Shown: piece after piece, positions 14,897 to 53,492 of the stretch
Position numbering within the stretch: the stretch's first letter is position 1
Layout: every line of letters starts with the position of its first letter
Origin: Eledone cirrhosa
Taxonomy: Eukaryota
DNA: 64,000 bases
Direction: 5' to 3'
Assembly: GCA_964016885.1 (NCBI GenBank)
Contig: OZ024743.1
Coordinates: 3,100,001 to 3,164,000, forward strand
Position numbers and translations under genes: made by a program
The notes under the pieces: generated by a model
Databases searched by the model: none
The model's input: only the letters and a program-made list of their open reading frames with translations
Told to the model about the DNA's origin: nothing

Positions 14897-15328
14897 TTCA
14901 TGTCACAGTCGCCTCCCAGGCAAAATACGACGCCTGTACCCGGTGTTTACAATTAATAACTGATTCTGCTCGGCTGTTTATAAGCTCATGGGGTGTTCTT
15001 ATGATGTAGTACAGCTCCATGAGGCAGAGCTGGCATTTCCCCCCTGAAGTTGTAGAGTGCAGCCCTACTGACAATATCCCAGTGTGTGGAGAAGCTTATG
15101 TTGGCGTCTTGCAATGTGGTGACGTAGTTGGCAAGCGATGTGGAGTGCCTTAATTTTTTGTTCCTGAAAGAGTGGAGATGCATTCTGAATCTCGTTTTAA
15201 ACTGGCCGGAGGTGGCTCCTATATAGTATTTAACTCCGCTATGGCTAGTTACGGTGCACCTATAAATAACCTTATCAGTCAGGCAGTTTCCCCTGAGAGG
15301 GCAGCCTCCACTATCACGACAGTTGCAA
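14897..15328 (-). mobile_element. Penelope-like element GIY-YIG endonuclease fragment
   Basis: CNCR..CPLRGNCL..VIYRCTV..YYIGATSGQFKTRFRMH, then after a frameshift CQLCLMELYYI..LINSRAE..CKHR. Confidence 0.85.
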
Positions 15329-15329
15329 A

Positions 15330-18300
15330 ACCACAATAAAACCATCCCCTGCTCCAGTCTCCTCACAAAGACATGATTACAACAACAAAAACAACAAAGG
15401 TAATGCTGCTCCAGTCTGGTCACAAAGACACGATCACAACAGCAACAAAAATGACGCTGCTCCAGTTTTTTCACAAAGACACAATTACAACAAATACAAC
15501 AACAACAACAACAAAAGAGGGAACTGCAACCCTATCCAATGTTGTAACCCCAAATCCAATCAAAAACTGCTCCCTGAACAAAAAAAAAATCTTTCATTTT
15601 TAGCCATGAACCTGAAAAGAGATAGAGAAAAACATTTTAGCCATCACCCAACACCAACCTTGCTGTCACTAACACAATCACAAAACAAGCCCCATGCAAC
15701 AGTCAAAACCAGCCACCACACTAGCCTCCACATTCTTACTCAATACACAAGGTATCAGCCCATCCATCAATGCACAGAAATGGAAGATCCAATTCATTGA
15801 GGATTGGGTTGGTAACCATCCATTTCACATCCCTTCTTCATTCTTACTGAGACCCACCTTGATAACTCCCACTTGGAGGCCGAAGTAAGAGTGAGAAATT
15901 TCACAACCATCCTTGCGGATCGTGTTGGCAGAAGGAAGGGTGGAACTGCCATTTTCCTGAATGATTCCTTTACAGCAGATGGCAACAACATTCTCTAATG
16001 GATACTGTGAATCAGCCACTGTGCACAATAAAGCCAATGACCTGACATTAGTTGGGCTCTATAGGCCACCACAAACACCCATAATCTGTTTCAAAGAATG
16101 CCTCAACAGTATTAAATGCTTTATTAAACAGTGCCATTCTAGCAACATACTTTTGATGGGAGACTTTAATCTACCCTGTGTCTATTGGTCTACATGTAGT
16201 TTGAAACCAGGCTCCACAGCCTCAACCACAGACAAAGAGGCTGCTGAGTCACCTCTTGACTTCATGAATGAGTTTTTCTTGTCCCAACTTGTCCTTGCAC
16301 CAACGAGGAGACATCAGAAGGACATTCTGGATCTAGTGTTTAGTAGCCACACTAACACTATACATAATATTACAGTGGAAAAAACCCTTCTCTCAGACCA
16401 TGACATGGTTCTTTGTAACCTGAGATTCCACCAGCCGAAAGCTAATCCCAGGGTCCTCTCTCCAGCCCACCCATTTGATAACATGGATCTCTACAATGCC
16501 AACTGGGATGCAATTATGAACAAACTATCACATGTCGACTGGTCTTTTACACACGCACACACTTCCACCAACATCAAAACATCTTGGCATATCTTTGTAG
16601 ACACTGTCACAAATATATGCACAAAACACACCCCACCAAAACCTGTGAACAAAACCAAGTGCAGTATCCCCCAAAACAGAAAAACAATTATCAGAAAAAT
16701 AAAAAGAACAAACAAAAAATTAACACACTAAAATACTGCCAACAACAACACACACATTCAATGGCTATCACCCTGCTTGAATCAAAAAAATATAACCTCC
16801 AGCCATGCATGATGACCATCATCAATAACCAGAGAATAGCTGAAGAGAGGTGGGCCATTGAGAAAATCAAACTCAACCCCAAAGTGTTCTTCTCATTCGC
16901 TAAAAAACACAAGGTCACCGTCTCTACTGTTGGCCCCCTAGTTGATGAAAATGGCACACTCCAAGACAATGCCAAAACCACTGCAGAAACAATACTGCTC
17001 TGTTTTCAGCAACCCTGATATGGCCGATCTGGGCTGTATCAGTGATGTTAACCCCCAACACACTATATCAGACATAACGTTTAGCGCCCCTGATGTCTTA
17101 GCGGCAATAAACGAAATTAAATACAATTCAGCAATAGGCCCCGACAGGTTCCCTGCTTGTGTCCTGAAGGTGTGTCGACACCAACTTGCAACTCCTCTTG
17201 CTAATCTGTGGAGGAACTCACTGGACACTGGCTATATTCCTGAAAACTTTCTGTCCCAGTCTTCAAAAAGGGAAATAAGTCCCTTGCAGTCAACTACTGT
17301 CCGATCTCACTCACCTCTCATATTATCAAGGTATTTGAGAGGGTGGTGAGATCACGAATAACCCACTTTCTTGAAAGCAACAGCCTGCTGAACTCCAACC
17401 AACATGAATTCCGTAATGGAAGGGACTGCCTAATGCAGCTCCTGCATCACTTTGACGATGTTTTGAGAGCCTTGGGAGAGGGCTCCAACACTGATGTCAT
17501 CTACCTTGATTTCAGCAAGGCCTTCGACAGGGTTGATCATAAGATTCTACTGAAAAACTATCCAATGTTGGTGTCTCTGGAAGGTTACTACAGTGGATCA
17601 AATGTTTCCTGACAGGCAGAACCCAGCATGTTGTAGTCGAAGGAGTAAAATCAAGTCCTGCAAAAGTCAGCAGTGGCGTCCTACAAGGCACTGTGTTGGG
17701 CCCACTTTTCATCATCTACATTAATGACATTACTGACATCATCAAACACAGCAACATCAGAATCTTCGCAGATGATTCCAAGCTCCAAAGGGTCATCAAT
17801 GAGGTGGGTGACCGGACTTGCCCTCAGTCAGACCTACTGGCTGTTATCCAATGGGCAGAGATGAATAATATGCTGTTGAATGAGGATAAATTTGAAGTAA
17901 TCCACTTTGGAAAAAAGGATGCCCTAAAACTACCATACTCTCTTCCTTCGGGTGAAACTCTAGTGGCTTCCAATAAGATCAGAGACCTGGGAGTAATTGT
18001 GGACAACAATATAAGCTGGGCCACTCTTATAAACAGCAAAGTTGATATGGCCCGCAGAATGTGTTCCTGGATTCTCAGAACTTTCCAGTCGAGATATATC
18101 CACACTGTTATCCTTCTCTTCTCCCCTTTTGCCCGACCCCACCTTGGATACTGTTGCCCACTGTGGTCAACCCACATGAAACAAAGTATCATGAAAGTTG
18201 AAGCACCCCAAAGGTCAATTACAAAAAAGATAGTTGGCATGACAGACCTTGACTATTGGGGTCGATTAGAAAAGCTCAAACTTTATTCTCTTCAACGTCG

Positions 18301-20036: not shown

Positions 20037-21272
20037 TCTATATATATACTTAATACAATAACAGAGATAGCTTAACGCTAAACTCCGACTGGCAACCATC
20101 TCACTCAACAAACATTAGGTTATATGTTAGTATAACCCAATTTATGTGTTTGGGGTGCTAACTATATGTATTTTGTGGAAAGCCAGTTGTATTATTTTAT
20201 GAGATATAATTAAAGTTAAAATATATCTCTCTTTCCAAACAATTGTTTCATTATAAGTTTTCTACAAATTGGGAGAATATTTCCAGTTTATGTAGAAGCC
20301 TAACATATATTCATGTAAGAATATATTTAGATGGGCACTTATAAATCTTCAGTGGAAGCCCATTAAACTTTGATATAAGAAAAAATTCTTACCGCAGTTA
20401 AAAATCGTGTCTGCTAAGCTGCTCCCTCACGCATTGAATGACCGCCAAATTTGAAATTCCAGCAGTTTTTTGACTGAGGAAGTTTCATAGCGTCACGAAG
20501 CGGGAAGGGGAGACAACCACGATACATGAGAAAAGAAAAAAATAATATACACTCGGGTTAATTAGTTTTTTCAAAAACATTATCAATCCAACATGTTAAG
20601 AACTCAATTGAAATTTAAAAAATAAATGTATGCGTGTATTAATTACACACGCATATAGATATTTTCTTAGGCTAAAAACAGAGGTGATACCAAAATAATA
20701 AACCACATCACATCACCGCAGCAAATACGGAAGGTTACGCTTTAAAGGCGATTGGGAATGTAAATCTCTGGCCAAATTAAGAGTAAAATATTTAATACAC
20801 GCGGGTTAATTAGTTATTTAAAACTATTATCAATTCCACGTGTTAAGAACTCAATTAATTTTAAAAAATAAATGTATGCATGCAATTATTTACACACGCA
20901 TATATATATTTTCTTAGGCTAAAAACAGAGAAGTGACAACCAAAAAACCTCCATATCTCACAACAGTAACAAATACGGAAAGTCATACTTATAAGGTACC
21001 TGGAAATAAATACCTATGGCCAAATCAAGAGTAACATATTTAATACAATAACAGAGATAGCTTAACGCTAAACTCCGACTGGCAACGATATATTAACAAA
21101 TGGAAACTATATTTATAAAACCATATTTATTTTATTATACATATTTCAAGGACACCAAGTTAAATTATGGTGTGCTTTCATCAGATAAAATATAATATAG
21201 AGCAGTTTTATAAATAAATATTGACACACCCTTAAAGAATGCGACCATTTCTGTTGGAAGCTCCCGGATAGT
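20037..21272 (+). mobile_element. Non-coding element with internal direct repeats, possibly a non-autonomous Helitron
   Basis: Starts TCTATATATATA; ~48-bp direct repeat at 20049 and 21039; ~250-bp diverged tandem at 20540-21040. Confidence 0.35.
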
Positions 21273-23160: not shown

Positions 23161-23600
23161 ATTAGGATTGGTGCTCTGAAATAGCGATATATACATGAAT
23201 GTATGTATAGTATATCTGGCGATATACTGTATGTTTAATTAAAAACATTTTGAAGACCTTGCGCAAAAATTGAAAATTAGGATCGCTATTTCAGAGCACC
23301 AATCCTAATTTTCAATTTTTGCTGGACCGGCAATCGCTCTGTATAATCAGTTCCTGATTATTATTGGAATTCTATAAGAATTCAGCCTCTATAATTTTCA
23401 ACAAAGGTCGGTGAGTGCTAAGCTCTGGTGAACACCAACAGTGTGAAACGGATCTCTCAGCTTATCTCCCTTCCCTTGTTGAAAAAAGAATTAAGTGACA
23501 TAGTCACTACTTTAAAATAATAGCACATGGTCTTCAAAATGTTTTTAATTAAACATACGGTATATTGCCAGATATACTATACATACATTCATATATATAT
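23161..23600 (+). mobile_element. Small non-coding hammerhead-bearing retroelement (retrozyme/Penelope pLTR-like) with inverted 5' piece
   Basis: Flanked by (TA)n; homologous to 63511-64000; contains the hammerhead fold at 23419-23464. Confidence 0.7.
23419..23464 (+). ncRNA. Type I hammerhead ribozyme (slightly degenerate)
   Basis: TAAGCT-CTGGTGA-ACAC caaca GTGT-GAAAC ggatct CTC-AGCTTA: perfect stems I and II, core CUGgUGA/GAAA. Confidence 0.7.
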
Positions 23601-23652
23601 AGTGATGAAACATAAGTCAATTGCATGAACTCATACTCATAATCCTTTATTT

Positions 23653-23688
23653 ACTGCTATATATATTTCGATGACCTCATCAGGCAGT
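23653..23688 (-). ncRNA. Minimal type I hammerhead ribozyme with intact core
   Basis: Minus strand ACTGC-CTGATGA-GGtcaTC-GAAA-T atat ATA-GCAGT. Confidence 0.75.
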
Positions 23689-23766
23689 TAGTCAGTTCTT
23701 AGATATGCCAGCTCTGTGTTTATAGTGTTGATGGTATCAGAGCCTTGGACAAATATATATATATAT

Positions 23767-23882
23767 ATAGGAACCAGTAAGACCCCGACAGCTGAGCTCA
23801 AGCCGTTTCGACGGCTAATTCTGGACTGAATTAGCCGTCGAAACGGCTTGAGCTCAGCTGTCGGGGTCTTACTGGTTCCTAT
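23767..23882. repeat. Perfect 55-bp-arm hairpin with 6-nt loop, next to (TA)n
   Basis: ATAGGAACCAGTAAGACCCCG..GCTAATTC tggact GAATTAGC..CGGGGTCTTACTGGTTCCTAT. Confidence 0.95.
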
Positions 23883-44683: not shown

Positions 44684-45633
44684 TGGGCACTACAACGCTA
44701 TTAGCTATCAGTCGAAAGCAGCCGATGAAAGCAAAACATCGTTTATTTCCGTATTACTACCAAGTGGAGTTACTTAAATGAAAATTTTATTTTTTCACGA
44801 ATTTTATTTTTTTTCTATTTTTTATTAATGCATATAGATGTAAGTGAAGTTACTTAAATGAAAATATAGGTGGCCCTTAAAAGGGTCAAATTAGAAAACA
44901 AATTTAAGTTAATTAGAAAACAAGTCATGGTTATCAAATAAATTGGATTTAATCATTTATATTTTCATAGTCATGGTTATCAATGTAGAAAACAAGTCAT
45001 TTTCACCAACAGTGGAGTTAATTTAAATGAAAATATAGGTGGCCCTTAAAAGGGCCAAATTAGAAAACAAATTTATGGTTATCAAATTTTTTTCACCAAC
45101 CTTATTCAAGAAATGTTTAGAAAACAAATTTTTTTCACCAACCTTATTCAAAAGCATGGATACAGTCCACATGGAGACAAGAGACAGTCCCCATGGAGAC
45201 AAGAGACAGTTCCATGGAGATTGATGGTATCTGCTGTAGTAGCGGTAGCGATGGAAAGATCGCGATGGTTAATTCCATTAACAATTTGGCCCTTTTAAGG
45301 GCCACCTATATTTTCATTTAAGTTAACTCCACTGTTGGTGAAAATGACTTGTTTTCTACATTGATAACCATGACTATGAAAATATAAATGATTAAATCCA
45401 ATTTATTTGATAACCACGACTTGTTTTCTAATTTGGCCCTTTTAAGGGCCACCTATATTTTCATTTAAGTAACTTCACTTACATCTATATGCTTTAATAA
45501 AAAAAAAAAATAAATAAAAAACGCGTGAAAACTCCACTTACGCGTGGTGGTAGTAATACGGAAATAAACGATGACGAATGACGTCACCTTCGCCTGCTTT
45601 CACGACTGACAGCTCATGGCGTTGTAGTGCCCA
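44684..45633. mobile_element. Foldback DNA element with long inverted arms, possible 4-bp TSD CTTT
   Basis: TGGGCACTACAACG ... CGTTGTAGTGCCCA; inner arms ~44820-45060 vs 45283-45500; central GAGACAGTCCCCATGGAGACAA repeats. Confidence 0.8.
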
Positions 45634-48401: not shown

Positions 48402-49488
48402 GATTAAATAGAAATACATTCATATAATCAATTAATTATTGCTAGGAACCTTATAAATGTAAACGAAATAGCGTCCTATAAGTTGTCTTTTTCTTCTTTT
48501 CTCTTGGAAATTAAGAATACTCCAGCGCCCGTTGTTGTAGCGTATGGTTGAGCGTGCGTGTCTTTCTCTCTTTATATCTCTTATTTTATACTATTTTTGT
48601 ATAAATCTGGTGTCAGTACCGATGACCCATCCAACCCTTGCTGGCATGGAGAACGGACGGTAAATTATGACGACGACGATGATGATAATAATGACGACAA
48701 CGATGATGATGATGATAATAATAATTATGATGATGACTGTAACAAAATATCCTTTGGAAGTTGTTGGTTCATTGGATACAGAAGGACATTTCCAGGAGGA
48801 TTGAGTAAGGAGTAGATTCGGTGCCAGATTTACCATTGTGCTTAGGTGTGCTTAAGTATAGGGCCCCTATAACGGCGGCGAAGATTCGAAACCGAATCTG
48901 AGCTTTCCCGCCTCTGGGACAAGCCGTGGTAACTTGTTTACGCTCAAGAGACTAACCCCTTGAGAGAGGCTAAACACAGGTCAGAGGTGTTTACTCCTGA
49001 CAGAAAATAGGTCAGAGGATATATCCATCTTCCTGACTTGTTTACGCTTGGCAAACTAATCCCTTGGGAGACTAACTAAAGTTCAGAGGATATATCTATC
49101 CTTCTAACTTCAACTCTTATAAATACAGGGGTTGTTTACGCCTCGACAGAAAAGAAGTGATATACAGACAAGTCGCATTTACAAGCTCTCGTCACGAAAA
49201 ACCAGTCTGCCACTTATTCTCACCTTCCTGGCTGATCGCTGACTCCTGCAATACAAACAAGTAAATATACTGATACGCCGCACACGCATTCATAGTGAGT
49301 TCAGTATTTATACACGCACCATTTCTGTTTACACATATTGTACCTTTCTGATACAGTACAAATTACATCGAAACCACCATACCAACAGTTACATCCATCC
49401 ATCCACTTATCGTTACAACATAATATTCCGTTACAACTGGTGACCCCGTAAAACAGACACACAACCTTCTGATCATCCACTACAAACG

Positions 49489-50538
49489 ATGTCTCTAGCA
49501 CACGACGATTCATCTATGGCAGAAATGGCAGTCAGGGCGGCATTTACATTAAGGATTCCACCATTCTGGGTGCACGATCCAACACTGTGGTTCGCGCACA
49601 TCGAAGCGCAGTTCGCATCGAACCGGATCTTTATGGAGGCATCCCGTCTCACACATGTCATCGGTTCGATGTCTCCGGAGATTATGAATGAGGTTCGAGA
49701 CCTCATTTTAGCACCACTCGGCTCTGTGTCATATGACACATTTAAAAGAACATTAGTTAAGCGGACGTCGGAGTCACAGCAGAAGCGTTTACACCAGCTC
49801 CTCATATCGGATGAATTAGGAGATAAAAAGCCGACGCAACTCCTACGGCGAATGAAGCAGCTCCTGGGAGAACATAAACTCCCGGATGAAATTTTCAAGT
49901 AACTCCTCCTCCAGCGTTTACTTTCTGTCACACAAGTTGTACTAGCATCCACCAGGGAGTCCACCACCATAGAAGAACTCGCCGAGCTGGCAGATAAAAT
50001 CATGGAGGTACCACATCCGCACTCAAAAATAGCGAATGTGACGCCAGCCGTGCCTTCCACCAATCCTTTCCTTCAGCCCTCCAGTGCCACAGAGATGCCC
50101 GATCTACACCAGTTACTGGCACAGCAAGCAACACAGATACAGGCCTTGATGCAACAAATTCAGGCCTTGTCACTGGGCAACCCTGCCACGCGTCGGTCCA
50201 ACAGTCGAACTCGCCGATTTGGTGGTCGCTCAAGAAGTCCGAGCGCATCTCGGGATTCACCAGAAATGTGTTGGTACCACCAACGATTCGAGAGACGAGC
50301 GCAAAAGTGCAGCCATCCCTGTTCATTTGTTTCGAAAACGAATCAGGGAAACGACACAGCCAGAAACTCAATGCGATGGACGTTTCTGGCCCTCATAACC
50401 AAAGTCGCCTATTTTTCATTCAGGATCGCGTCACAGGCACGCGTTTCCTGGTTGACACCGGTGCCGAAGTCAGCATCATCCCGGTTTCCTGCGTTCCTGG
50501 AAAAAGGAGAGAGACACCAGCCTGGCTCCAGGCGGTGA
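49489..50538 (+). pseudogene. gag: Gypsy gag with premature TAA at 49900
   Basis: IPPFWVHDPTLWFAHIEAQF, LGDKKPTQLLRRMKQL, CWYHQRF..A.KC..PC knuckle in one frame. Confidence 0.9.
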
Positions 50539-53492
50539 ATCACTCACATATTCCGACCTACGGAGAACAGTCCCTGACACTAAATTTGGGACTACGCCGC
50601 ACTTTCCAGTGGGTATTCGTTGTGGCTAAGCTGCCGACCCCTATTTTAAGAGCTGACTTTCTTTAGCACTTCTCGCTGCTAGTGGATCTGAAAAACCAAC
50701 GTCTCGTTGACAACTCCACTGGTCTCACTGTGCGCGGCATAGCCGCTAGGACAGCCACAGTCAGTCCAGTCATTTCACGATCGACAACAACAACCCGGCA
50801 CAACCACATCATCAACAAATACCCAGACGTAGCTCGACCACTATTCAATGCTTGGCCTGTAAAGCATGACGTCACACACCACATAAAAACACACGGCCCA
50901 CCTGTCGCTGCACGACCTAGAAGGCTACCACCAGACCGGCTGAAGTCCGTCAAACAAGAATTTCAGCACATGCTGGATCTCGGCATCATACGTCCGTCCA
51001 GCAGCAACTGGTCCTCACCCATACACTGTGTACCCAAGAAGTCGTCGAACGACTGGCGAATCTGTGGCGACTACCGTGCACTGAACAACTGCACCGTTCC
51101 TGATTCTTATCCAGTGCCTCATCTACAGGACTTCTCTAGCTCGCTGCACGGGGCTCGCATATTTTCGAAGATCGATCTTGTGCGAGCTTACAATCAGATA
51201 CCCGTTGAGCCAGCAGAGATTCCAAAGAGCGCAGTCACAACACCCTTTGGAATGTTCGAATTTCTGCGTATGCCTTTCGGTTTGCGAAATGCAGCGCAGA
51301 CATTCCAGCGATTCATCGATACAGTCACCAGAGGTCTACCTTTTGTATACGCATACATTGACGACTTACTGGTGGCCAGCAGCTCCGATGAAGGACATGA
51401 GAAACACCTGGATCCCCTATTCACACGTTTGCGTGAATACGGAATTGTTATCAACCCCAGCAAATGTGAGTTCGGAGTTGCGTCCCTTCATTTTCTGGGA
51501 CACATCATTGACAAAGATGGTATTCGCCCACTTAAGGAGAAAGTCAAATCCATCATTGATTTTCCACAACCTATATCTCTCCGCAAACTGCGAGAATTTC
51601 TTGGCCTGGTAAACTTCTACAGAAGATTTATACCCCACTGTGCAGAGACAGCCCAACCACTCACAGATTTGCTGCGGCAGCGTACAACCAAAAACGCAAA
51701 CATCAAGCTCAGCGAAAAAGAATGTACCGCTTTCGCTGAGTTGAAGAAAATGTTGTCCGAGGCTACAATGCTGAGTTACCCCAAACCTGACGCCCCAATG
51801 TGTTTATTGACTGATGCATCCGATTTCGGTGTTGGATGTGTGCTTCAACAACTCTCTGGCGATATTTGGCGACCTGTATCTTTTTTCTCTAAGCGATTAA
51901 AACCCACCGAAACTAAGTACAGCACATTCAGTCGTGAATTATTGGCAGCATACCTTGCTGTCAAGCATTTTCGACACATGCTAGAAGGTCGTGTGTTCTC
52001 TATATACACCGACCACAAACCACTACTGTACGCGTTCAACGCCAAGCCTGACCGACACTCACCCAGGGAGGTCCGACATCTGGACTTGATTTCTCAGTAC
52101 ACTACTGATATTCGGTACATTAAGGGTGCTACCAACTCAGCAGCTGATGCCCTATCGCACAGGGAGCTTAACGCAATCCACACCACTGCCACTATCAACC
52201 TCCAGAGGATTGCAGCGGATCAACAGAACGACGAGGAACTGCTGCAACTCCGGAAATCATCCTTGAAATTGAAGGAATGCCCGCTGCCCTCTTCTTCGGG
52301 TTATATTTGGTGCGACATCTCCACAGGCTGCGAGCACCCATACGGGCCCCGGAAACATCGACGCAACGTTTTCTCGGCACTGCATTCTCTGGCACATCCT
52401 GCCGTCCTCGCCACGCAGAAACTGATGGTTGCCCGCTTTGTGTGGCCCAACATCAACAAGGACACCCGCGAATGGGCTAGGAACTGTATCGCGTGCCAGA
52501 AGGCGAAAATTCACCGGCACATCAACGCCCCGATCGGTTCTTTCGTAACACCTGATGCACGGTTCCAACATGTACATATAGACATAGTTGGACCTTTGCC
52601 TCCTTCTCAAAACTACACTCATCTTCTCACCTGTGTCGACCAATTTTCTCGCTGGCCAGAAGCTTTTACCCTGGCAGATATTACTGCGGAAACTGTCGCC
52701 AAAACGCTAGTGTTTCACTGGGTTTCGCGTTTCAGCACACCCGCGACCATCACTACGGATAGAGGACGTCAGTTCGATTCGCACCTATTTACCGAGCGGA
52801 CTCGTCTCCTCGGGTGCAAACACATCCGTACAACAGCGTATCACCCTGCCGCTAACGGCATGGTAGAACGCTTCTACCGCCAGCTAAAAGCATCTATCAA
52901 GGCTTACGAAGACTCCACTAACTGGTTCGAATACCTCCCACTCATTCTTCTTGGTATTCGTTCCACTGTTAAGGAGGGAGTCGGACATTCTCCGGCTGAA
53001 ATGTTGTATGGCACCGTACTCACTCTACCCGGACAAATGATCGCTCCTGTTTCGCCACAAGAACTTCCAGACCCTACAAAATATGTGCACCGTTTACCGT
53101 CATCGATGTCGCATCTATCTCCTTCAGCCCCTAAACAACAGCACATTACTTCACACATACCAAAAGACATCGATACATGAACGCATGTTTTCGTTAGAAA
53201 TGACGGTATTCCATCGCAACTTCTTCCGCCGTATTCCGGGCCCTATAAGGTGATACAGAAACGCCCTAAGTATTTCGTCCTCGACTTGAACGGGAAACGA
53301 AATACTGTCTCCATTGATCGTTTAAAAAAAGCGTTCATAGAACAGGAATTGCCACCAGTACCCACCGTTTCTCCAGCAGACTACCAACAACTTTGCCCGA
53401 CACAAACACGACAAATTCTGCACAACCCCGACACACCAAATCTGGAAGAACAGTCCGATGGCCCACGCGATACGTACAAGTTTATTGGGTAA
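50343..53492 (+). pseudogene. pol: Gypsy pol (protease-RT-RNase H-integrase), in-frame stops at 50664 and 53178
   Basis: [52 protein letters not shown]. Confidence 0.95.

Follow-up and report, generated by a model that had tools for sequence, protein, structure and literature searches.

A hammerhead motif between (TA)n tracts in Eledone cirrhosa as the probable deletion-damaged 3' end of a Hydra-clade Penelope-like element

Hammerhead ribozymes of Penelope-like elements (PLEs) have been described mostly as single motifs in truncated elements; their helix II is long and their helix III palindromic (PMC4209133). Cleavage is reported there to be weak for dimers and below detection for monomers; single motifs of S. 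mansoni gave no cleavage and the dimers only a low level. Among the protein-coding PLEs, the closest described system is the Hydra clade of Craig et al. 2021 (PMC8557442), which is marked by a set of protein motifs listed below, by (TA)n targeting and by canonical hammerheads. A further point of comparison is provided by the metazoan non-LTR retrozymes, which are presented as 150-450-bp non-coding tandem repeats with type I hammerheads that have a weak helix III and may need dimers (PMC7229834).

Here we analyzed a window of Eledone cirrhosa DNA, meaning the whole stretch of 64,000 nt from contig OZ024743.1 (positions 3,100,001 to 3,164,000, forward strand). A preliminary description had seen in it a small element with an intact minimal hammerhead. 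We find that this segment is very probably the 5'-truncated 3' end of a ~4.2-kb Hydra-clade PLE inserted in (TA)n, with a deletion-damaged hammerhead that likely no longer cleaves. The features concerned are as follows.

23602 to 23751, minus strand: probable 5'-truncated 3' end (pseudo-LTR, or pLTR, piece) of a ~4.2-kb Hydra-clade PLE, matching the last ~180 nt of the whole unit
23653 to 23688, minus strand: type I hammerhead motif with a stem I of 5 bp, CUGAUGA, a shortened stem II, GAAA and an 8-nt palindromic helix III
23670 to 23676, minus strand: putative remnant of stem II, 7 nt, after a 20-nt deletion between two TCAT repeats (from alignments and counts)
23658 to 23666, minus strand: A15.1 to H17, that is the self-complementary AUAUAUAU and the cut-site A (from computed self-complementarity and a dimer model)
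23646 to 23651, minus strand: AATAAA, also in the family form; no role assigned
23630 to 23641, minus strand: TATGAG twice, a 6-nt tandem duplication in the window copy only
23592 to 23601, no strand: (TA)5 tract, the target, adjoining the fixed 3' end and shared with the unrelated element next to it, the two lying tail-to-tail
23754 to 23769, no strand: (TA)8 tract at the 5' truncation point, where the family reads CATATG, a microhomology with (TA)n
23161 to 23591, plus strand: unrelated hammerhead element of a family with a canonical type I motif

On the minus strand, the motif consists of ACTGC (23688-84), CTGATGA (23683-77), GGTCATC (23676-70), GAAA (23669-66), TATATATA (23665-58) and GCAGT (23657-53), and after a single A there is an AATAAA (23651-46). 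Much of what was first reported can be retained: the motif string lies at 23688-23653 with AATAAA close behind, the 150-nt segment is bracketed by (TA)5 at 23592-23601 and (TA)8 at 23754-23769, every catalytic core base is present, and the self-complementarity of helix III is borne out by computation. By type I PLE-style criteria, the window core has CUGANGA, GAAA, UH, stem I and the palindromic helix III. Under standard hammerhead numbering, we take the motif to be type I and the predicted cut to fall after UA, between 23658 and 23657. A strict descriptor (stem I of at least 5 bp, stem II of at most 12 nt and region III of at most 16 nt) has a single match in the window, and of 200 sequences simulated from it by a third-order Markov model one gave a match; the motif is real and not a product of chance. 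None of the 41 Rfam matches of the window (E ≤ 1) is to a hammerhead family, and MFE z-scores were unremarkable for the window motif (0.33, 0.77 and -1.10) and -1.92 for the family form. No second piece of the same PLE family was found in the window.

A genome-wide search for copies and for a parental Penelope ORF had been suggested, and both can now be supplied. Searching the organism's own 3.0-Gb genome gave 309 candidates, and all 40 that were scored match at E ≤ 1.5e-46. Longer copies run upstream into an RT-EN ORF, in a whole unit of 4.17-4.18 kb that includes ~1.3 kb of 3' non-coding DNA, and what was called a small element appears to be the truncated tail of this 4.2-kb one. The near-full units number 22, namely L063, L068 and 20 taken from the best matches; in 20 of the 22, a stretch of the unit's own 3' end, 28 to ~1,200 nt long, lies immediately upstream, which is the partial tandem or pLTR arrangement of PLEs. 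The units that were read did not include one with the whole ORF in a single frame; one unit holds a natural open frame of 847 aa, P0002, which provides the Penelope-type ORF. Its motifs are DKT at 86, YRDD at 317, CNCRDPSLC at 708, VVY..YIG at 727-744, CNLCLSE at 806 and LNRRADLFGACRH at 824 (LN..CRH); the VVY..YIG motif marks a putative GIY-YIG-type region at the C-terminus. DKG is absent from it, RMRWRAY (RWR) is found in copy L068, and by inspection there is no CxxC between VVY and YIG (CCHH absent). For P0002, 429 homologues were found; of those with a named source, the closest come from the molluscs Solemya and Argonauta. P0002 is collinear with a 705-aa homologue, P0001; DK[TS] occurs in 118 and RW[KR] in 88 of 120 homologues. 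At L094:2237-4780, two low-confidence inserts of ~120 and ~50 aa (P0002 residues 452-572 and 657-703) are seen relative to the ~705-aa homologues.

Pfam searches of P0002, P0001 and three broken pieces of L063 returned nothing relevant, and PDB sequence and profile searches with the family protein nothing significant. Among 12 homologues, Pfam recognized RVT_1 in two (both below cut-off) and GIY-YIG in two (one above cut-off). The best Foldseek match in the PDB for the AlphaFold2 model of P0002 (pLDDT 79) is the telomerase TERT 3du5 (E 7e-9), and no nuclease is among the matches listed; as a comparison of a predicted model, the fold search supports an RT and not a nuclease domain.

By motif comparison and by eye, the parent is very probably a Hydra-clade PLE. 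It shares with Hydra-1_Obim and the clade (PMC8557442) the DKT and RW[K/R] motifs, the CxCX5C linker, CxxC and CxH around the E and N of the EN domain and the lack of CCHH. Like the clade, it targets (TA)n, carries close to the 3' end, on the sense strand, a hammerhead whose helix III is palindromic, and shows partial tandems, truncation at the 5' side, an inverted arm and a one-sided tail. The N-terminus and the hammerhead sequence differ from those of Hydra-1_Obim. Measured against the clade as described there (PMC8557442), the two low-confidence ORF inserts and the ~1.3 kb of 3' non-coding DNA are different, the unit is longer (4.2 kb, against "generally <3 kb", a tendency and not a criterion), stem II is longer (27 nt, against 3-6 bp stems in the supplement rows) and so is the one-sided tail (~88 nt, against 30-40 bp). 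Three motifs of the family were not found in the portion of the Craig 2021 supplement at hand (PMC8557442), and a survey of titles and abstract starts of papers open without subscription gave no description of the family. We regard it as a new family within a known clade.

The stem II of this family is long. Hammerheads with the 27-nt stem II occur in at least 3,069 places (exact pattern; reversed-pattern control 0), whereas a stem II of 17 nt or less was found in only 19 places, with 16 different sequences, and the 28-nt form of the window has one exact match genome-wide and is thus unique; these three counts (3,069, 19 and 1) are exact-match lower bounds. When 30 copies were chosen on their upstream sequence, stem II was 26-27 nt in every one of them and the core was intact in 25. 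Aligned to the window copy were 29 other loci, a set skewed to deletions by the window query; in 24 of them stem II is 27 nt long and includes a 9-bp inverted repeat, and in five it is shorter. Row L032, which had wrong coordinates, was left out of alignment A1. Within the assembly sequence, the window form equals the family form less 20 nt between TCAT repeats, which flank the 9-bp hairpin, and with 6 nt duplicated. The TATGAG duplication is absent from the 29 other aligned loci and from 18 other short-stem copies. Three copies, including that of the window, have a 7-nt stem II; one of the other two is identical there and one has a substitution, and these two differ elsewhere and are without the duplication. 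The three may have a small lineage in common. To judge from the copies compared, the short stem II is damage in one copy and not the family form, and the notion of an intact minimal hammerhead with a tiny stem II has to be given up.

Substitution rates in the 30 copies (core 2.4-2.5%, stem II 3.6%, 5' flank 4.4%, 3' tail 1.6% and helix III 0.4%) gave no clear signal of selection on the core within copies. The layout of a short stem I, a long stem II and an 8-nt palindrome, for example TGCGCATA or TACGTATA, is also found in other, unrelated families at the loci fetched, which speaks for the family fold as a genuine design that recurs.

Computed folds set the two forms apart. The probability of the G10.1-C11.1 pair is 0.001 in the window copy and 0.40 in the family form, and a stable stem II closed by this pair is absent from the window copy (1 pair in the constrained fold, against 11). 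The window fold pairs the core UGAUG with CAUCG, and the core-open fold lies 5.9 kcal/mol above the best one; the best fold of the family form likewise buries part of the core. Calculated with nearest-neighbour energies, which omit core and tertiary contacts, the active dimer of the window form comes to -9.0 kcal/mol against -13.6 for two monomers (4.6 less stable) and that of the family form to -36.4 against -31.4 (5.0 more stable). These active dimers stand 12.4 (window) and 2.8 kcal/mol (family) above the best folds, and a mixed dimer 7.6. Helix III between two ribozymes would be the 8 bp formed by the AUAUAUAU palindrome. On this model the window hammerhead is likely inactive, its shortened stem II losing to a hairpin that buries the core, and the activity expected of an intact motif is not predicted for this copy. 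All core letters and the G-C closing pair are retained, so that some cleavage by it is possible.

The family hammerhead compares well with the minimal PLE hammerheads of PMC4209133: both are type I and share a 5-bp helix I, a palindromic helix III, the G10.1-C11.1 pair and, for the family form, a long helix II; both are dispersed mostly as single motifs from truncated PLEs. The family fold differs in being without the unpaired base between A9 and G10.1 and in a palindrome of pure (AU)4. The 7-nt stem II of the window would be damage and is not a feature of the class as described there. The proposed link to PLE hammerheads can be kept for the type I, PLE-style architecture, but not for the tiny stem II as a class feature, the family having 27 nt. 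Likeness to the retrozymes (PMC7229834) extends to the type I motif, the weak helix III and the possible need for dimers; the parent unit, at 4.2 kb and coding, falls outside the size and non-coding nature given for them, and the neighbouring element at 23161-23591 fits their description better.

If the segment were instead an independent, non-autonomous element of ~155 bp, SINE- or retrozyme-like and with a minimal hammerhead of its own, the (TA)n flanks on both sides would be accounted for, as would the several copies that begin at the 5' point of the window copy (16 of the 29 other loci start within a few bases of it) and the at least six copies with a +88 tail (described below) that also start near -167. 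However, the 29 loci were picked with the window query and are thus biased, and the start falls on the CATATG microhomology with (TA)n. Moreover, 13 of them continue upstream, some for kilobases, into the ORF; no head-to-tail array of the 165-nt unit was found in the loci read; and the short stem II, in 19 places with 16 sequences, is not inherited as a family. This reading is largely refuted, and we hold it to be highly improbable. It is also very unlikely that the segment is a PLE end in which the reduced ribozyme remains able to cleave, be it by itself or by pairing in trans with transcripts of the family, and might act on host read-through RNA. The core letters, G10.1-C11.1, stem I and palindrome are indeed all there, and thousands of family copies are potential partners in trans, but the core-open fold, the mixed dimer and the homodimer lie 5.9, 7.6 and 12.4 kcal/mol above their respective best folds, and the S. 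mansoni PLE motifs did not cleave singly and cleaved only at a low level as dimers (PMC4209133). Furthermore, no host gene was identified in the window, where the recognizable long frames look, by eye, like mobile-element relics.

The 20-nt deletion could also have arisen from faulty reads or assembly at a perfect hairpin, the true allele having the family stem II. What is missing is indeed a hairpin between short repeats, and contigs of other samples break at 23671-23674 and run into the hairpin, although these may derive from any of the thousands of copies. Against such an error, which we consider extremely unlikely, stand the 19 shortened copies with 16 sequences, by which such losses recur, and the unrelated 6-nt duplication that the window copy also bears. 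The family form is long even if the deletion is an error, and our main conclusion, that of a truncated PLE end, holds either way.

The copies of the family also bear on how it is copied. They share a fixed 3' end 50 nt past the predicted cut, with 3,063 exact matches of the end followed by TATATAT; it is 38 family-nt beyond AATAAA, in (TA)n and without poly(A). Of 82 ends in the fetched loci, 61 are followed by TA-type repeats, 17 by the next unit and four by other sequence. The 5' ends are variable, and copies range from ~160 nt up to the whole unit. A second fixed 3' end, at about +88 to +90, i.e. ~138 nt past the predicted cut and ~88 nt into the next unit, is found in 104 copies; a position of about +78, considered for it, had 1 match only. 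An inverted arm adjoins 17 of the first 30 of these 104, a count that covers +88-ended copies only; 14 of the 17 arms stop at the plain end, and the other 13 copies are without an arm. The cut-site pattern gave 11 matches, of which seven are copies that stop there and four are TA expansions. Direct priming by the cleaved RNA end (...GAAAUAUAUAUA) on (TA)n was rejected as the main route, with ~7 copies against 3,063 at +50. Locus L122 has two copies that meet tail-to-tail over a single (TA)n tract; one of them goes no further than the ribozyme cut site, and its partner runs to the plain end. At the other side of the unit, 17 of the 22 near-full units extend upstream past the cut site of their own pLTR, with an overshoot of up to ~1.2 kb, and five start within ~60 nt downstream of it, too few to call an excess.

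The 3' ends at 50 and ~138 nt past the cut site, together with the upstream overshoot, fit a template that had either stayed uncut or been closed into a circle after cutting. A re-joined circular template for PLEs was proposed by Cervera and de la Pena (PMC4209133). It is possible but rather doubtful that the footprints go back to an RNA that was cut by its ribozyme, re-ligated into a circle and then copied from two priming sites, one for each DNA strand of the break, so that nearly every copy would pass the cut site within 50 nt; a linear RNA that starts in the upstream pLTR explains the end data equally well. Should the circle be true, it would be genomic evidence for the long-proposed circular PLE template, in a protein-coding family and with exact coordinates.

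The window copy could have originated as follows. Going by PLE biology, the GIY-YIG-type domain would nick (TA)n, and the RT would prime at the TA motif 50 nt past the ribozyme cut site. The unit reads TATTATA immediately after the fixed end, which could pair with the (TA)n target. Reverse transcription would have stopped after ~165 nt, at the CATATG microhomology. The stem II hairpin may then have collapsed by slippage between the TCAT repeats, either in reverse transcription or later in the DNA. In transcripts of the element, the family ribozyme would act as a dimer via the AUAUAUAU palindrome, probably slowly.

It was correct to see in the neighbouring element a second ribozyme family that meets the first in one (TA)n tract and is unrelated to it: compared with a whole 4.2-kb unit, its best blastn E is 0.78. 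The neighbouring copy has CTGGTGA at 23425-23431 (G for A6) and changes in helix III. A first look at its family gave 2,602 candidates, most copies having a canonical type I hammerhead and many lying head-to-tail (~318-nt unit) with inverted 5' pieces; it looks like a non-coding retrozyme with a PLE-type footprint. Since both families target (TA)n, their meeting at one (TA)5 is to be expected. From L097:6027 onward, a near-full unit of the PLE family likewise ends against a piece of the neighbour family, and the co-location thus recurs. The window has a third hammerhead at 21184 on the minus strand (motif about 21134-21192), with an 8-bp AT-rich stem I, a 30-nt stem II and TATGTATA in helix III; other loci hold relatives that have this stem I, and it is probably the end of another PLE family. 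A tblastn match to P0002 (E 4e-16) at 14922-15345 on the minus strand represents the endonuclease end of a further Hydra-type ORF. Adjoining the segment, at 23767-23882, is a perfect 55-bp inverted repeat with a 6-nt spacer, and its very high sequencing depth implies a very abundant repeat in two-armed form. Elsewhere in the window, 44847-45475 has four Rfam Histone3 stem-loop matches on both strands, three of them above the gathering score, and 49444-53180 (plus strand) has gag-like and pol-like open frames, including one of 837 aa, and looks like an LTR retrotransposon.

The window copy itself is an ordinary broken dead-end fragment and matters little. It does show that scans for ribozymes need care, since a "minimal" class can be mimicked by individual copies in which a hairpin-collapse deletion has occurred (19 short copies versus 3,069 long ones). 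Its parent is a high-copy, very probably Hydra-clade PLE family which, by the three motifs, is not in the part of the Craig 2021 supplement at hand (PMC8557442). The mapped predicted cut site and the two fixed ends give primers and constructs with which the role of PLE hammerheads and the question of template circularity could be approached.
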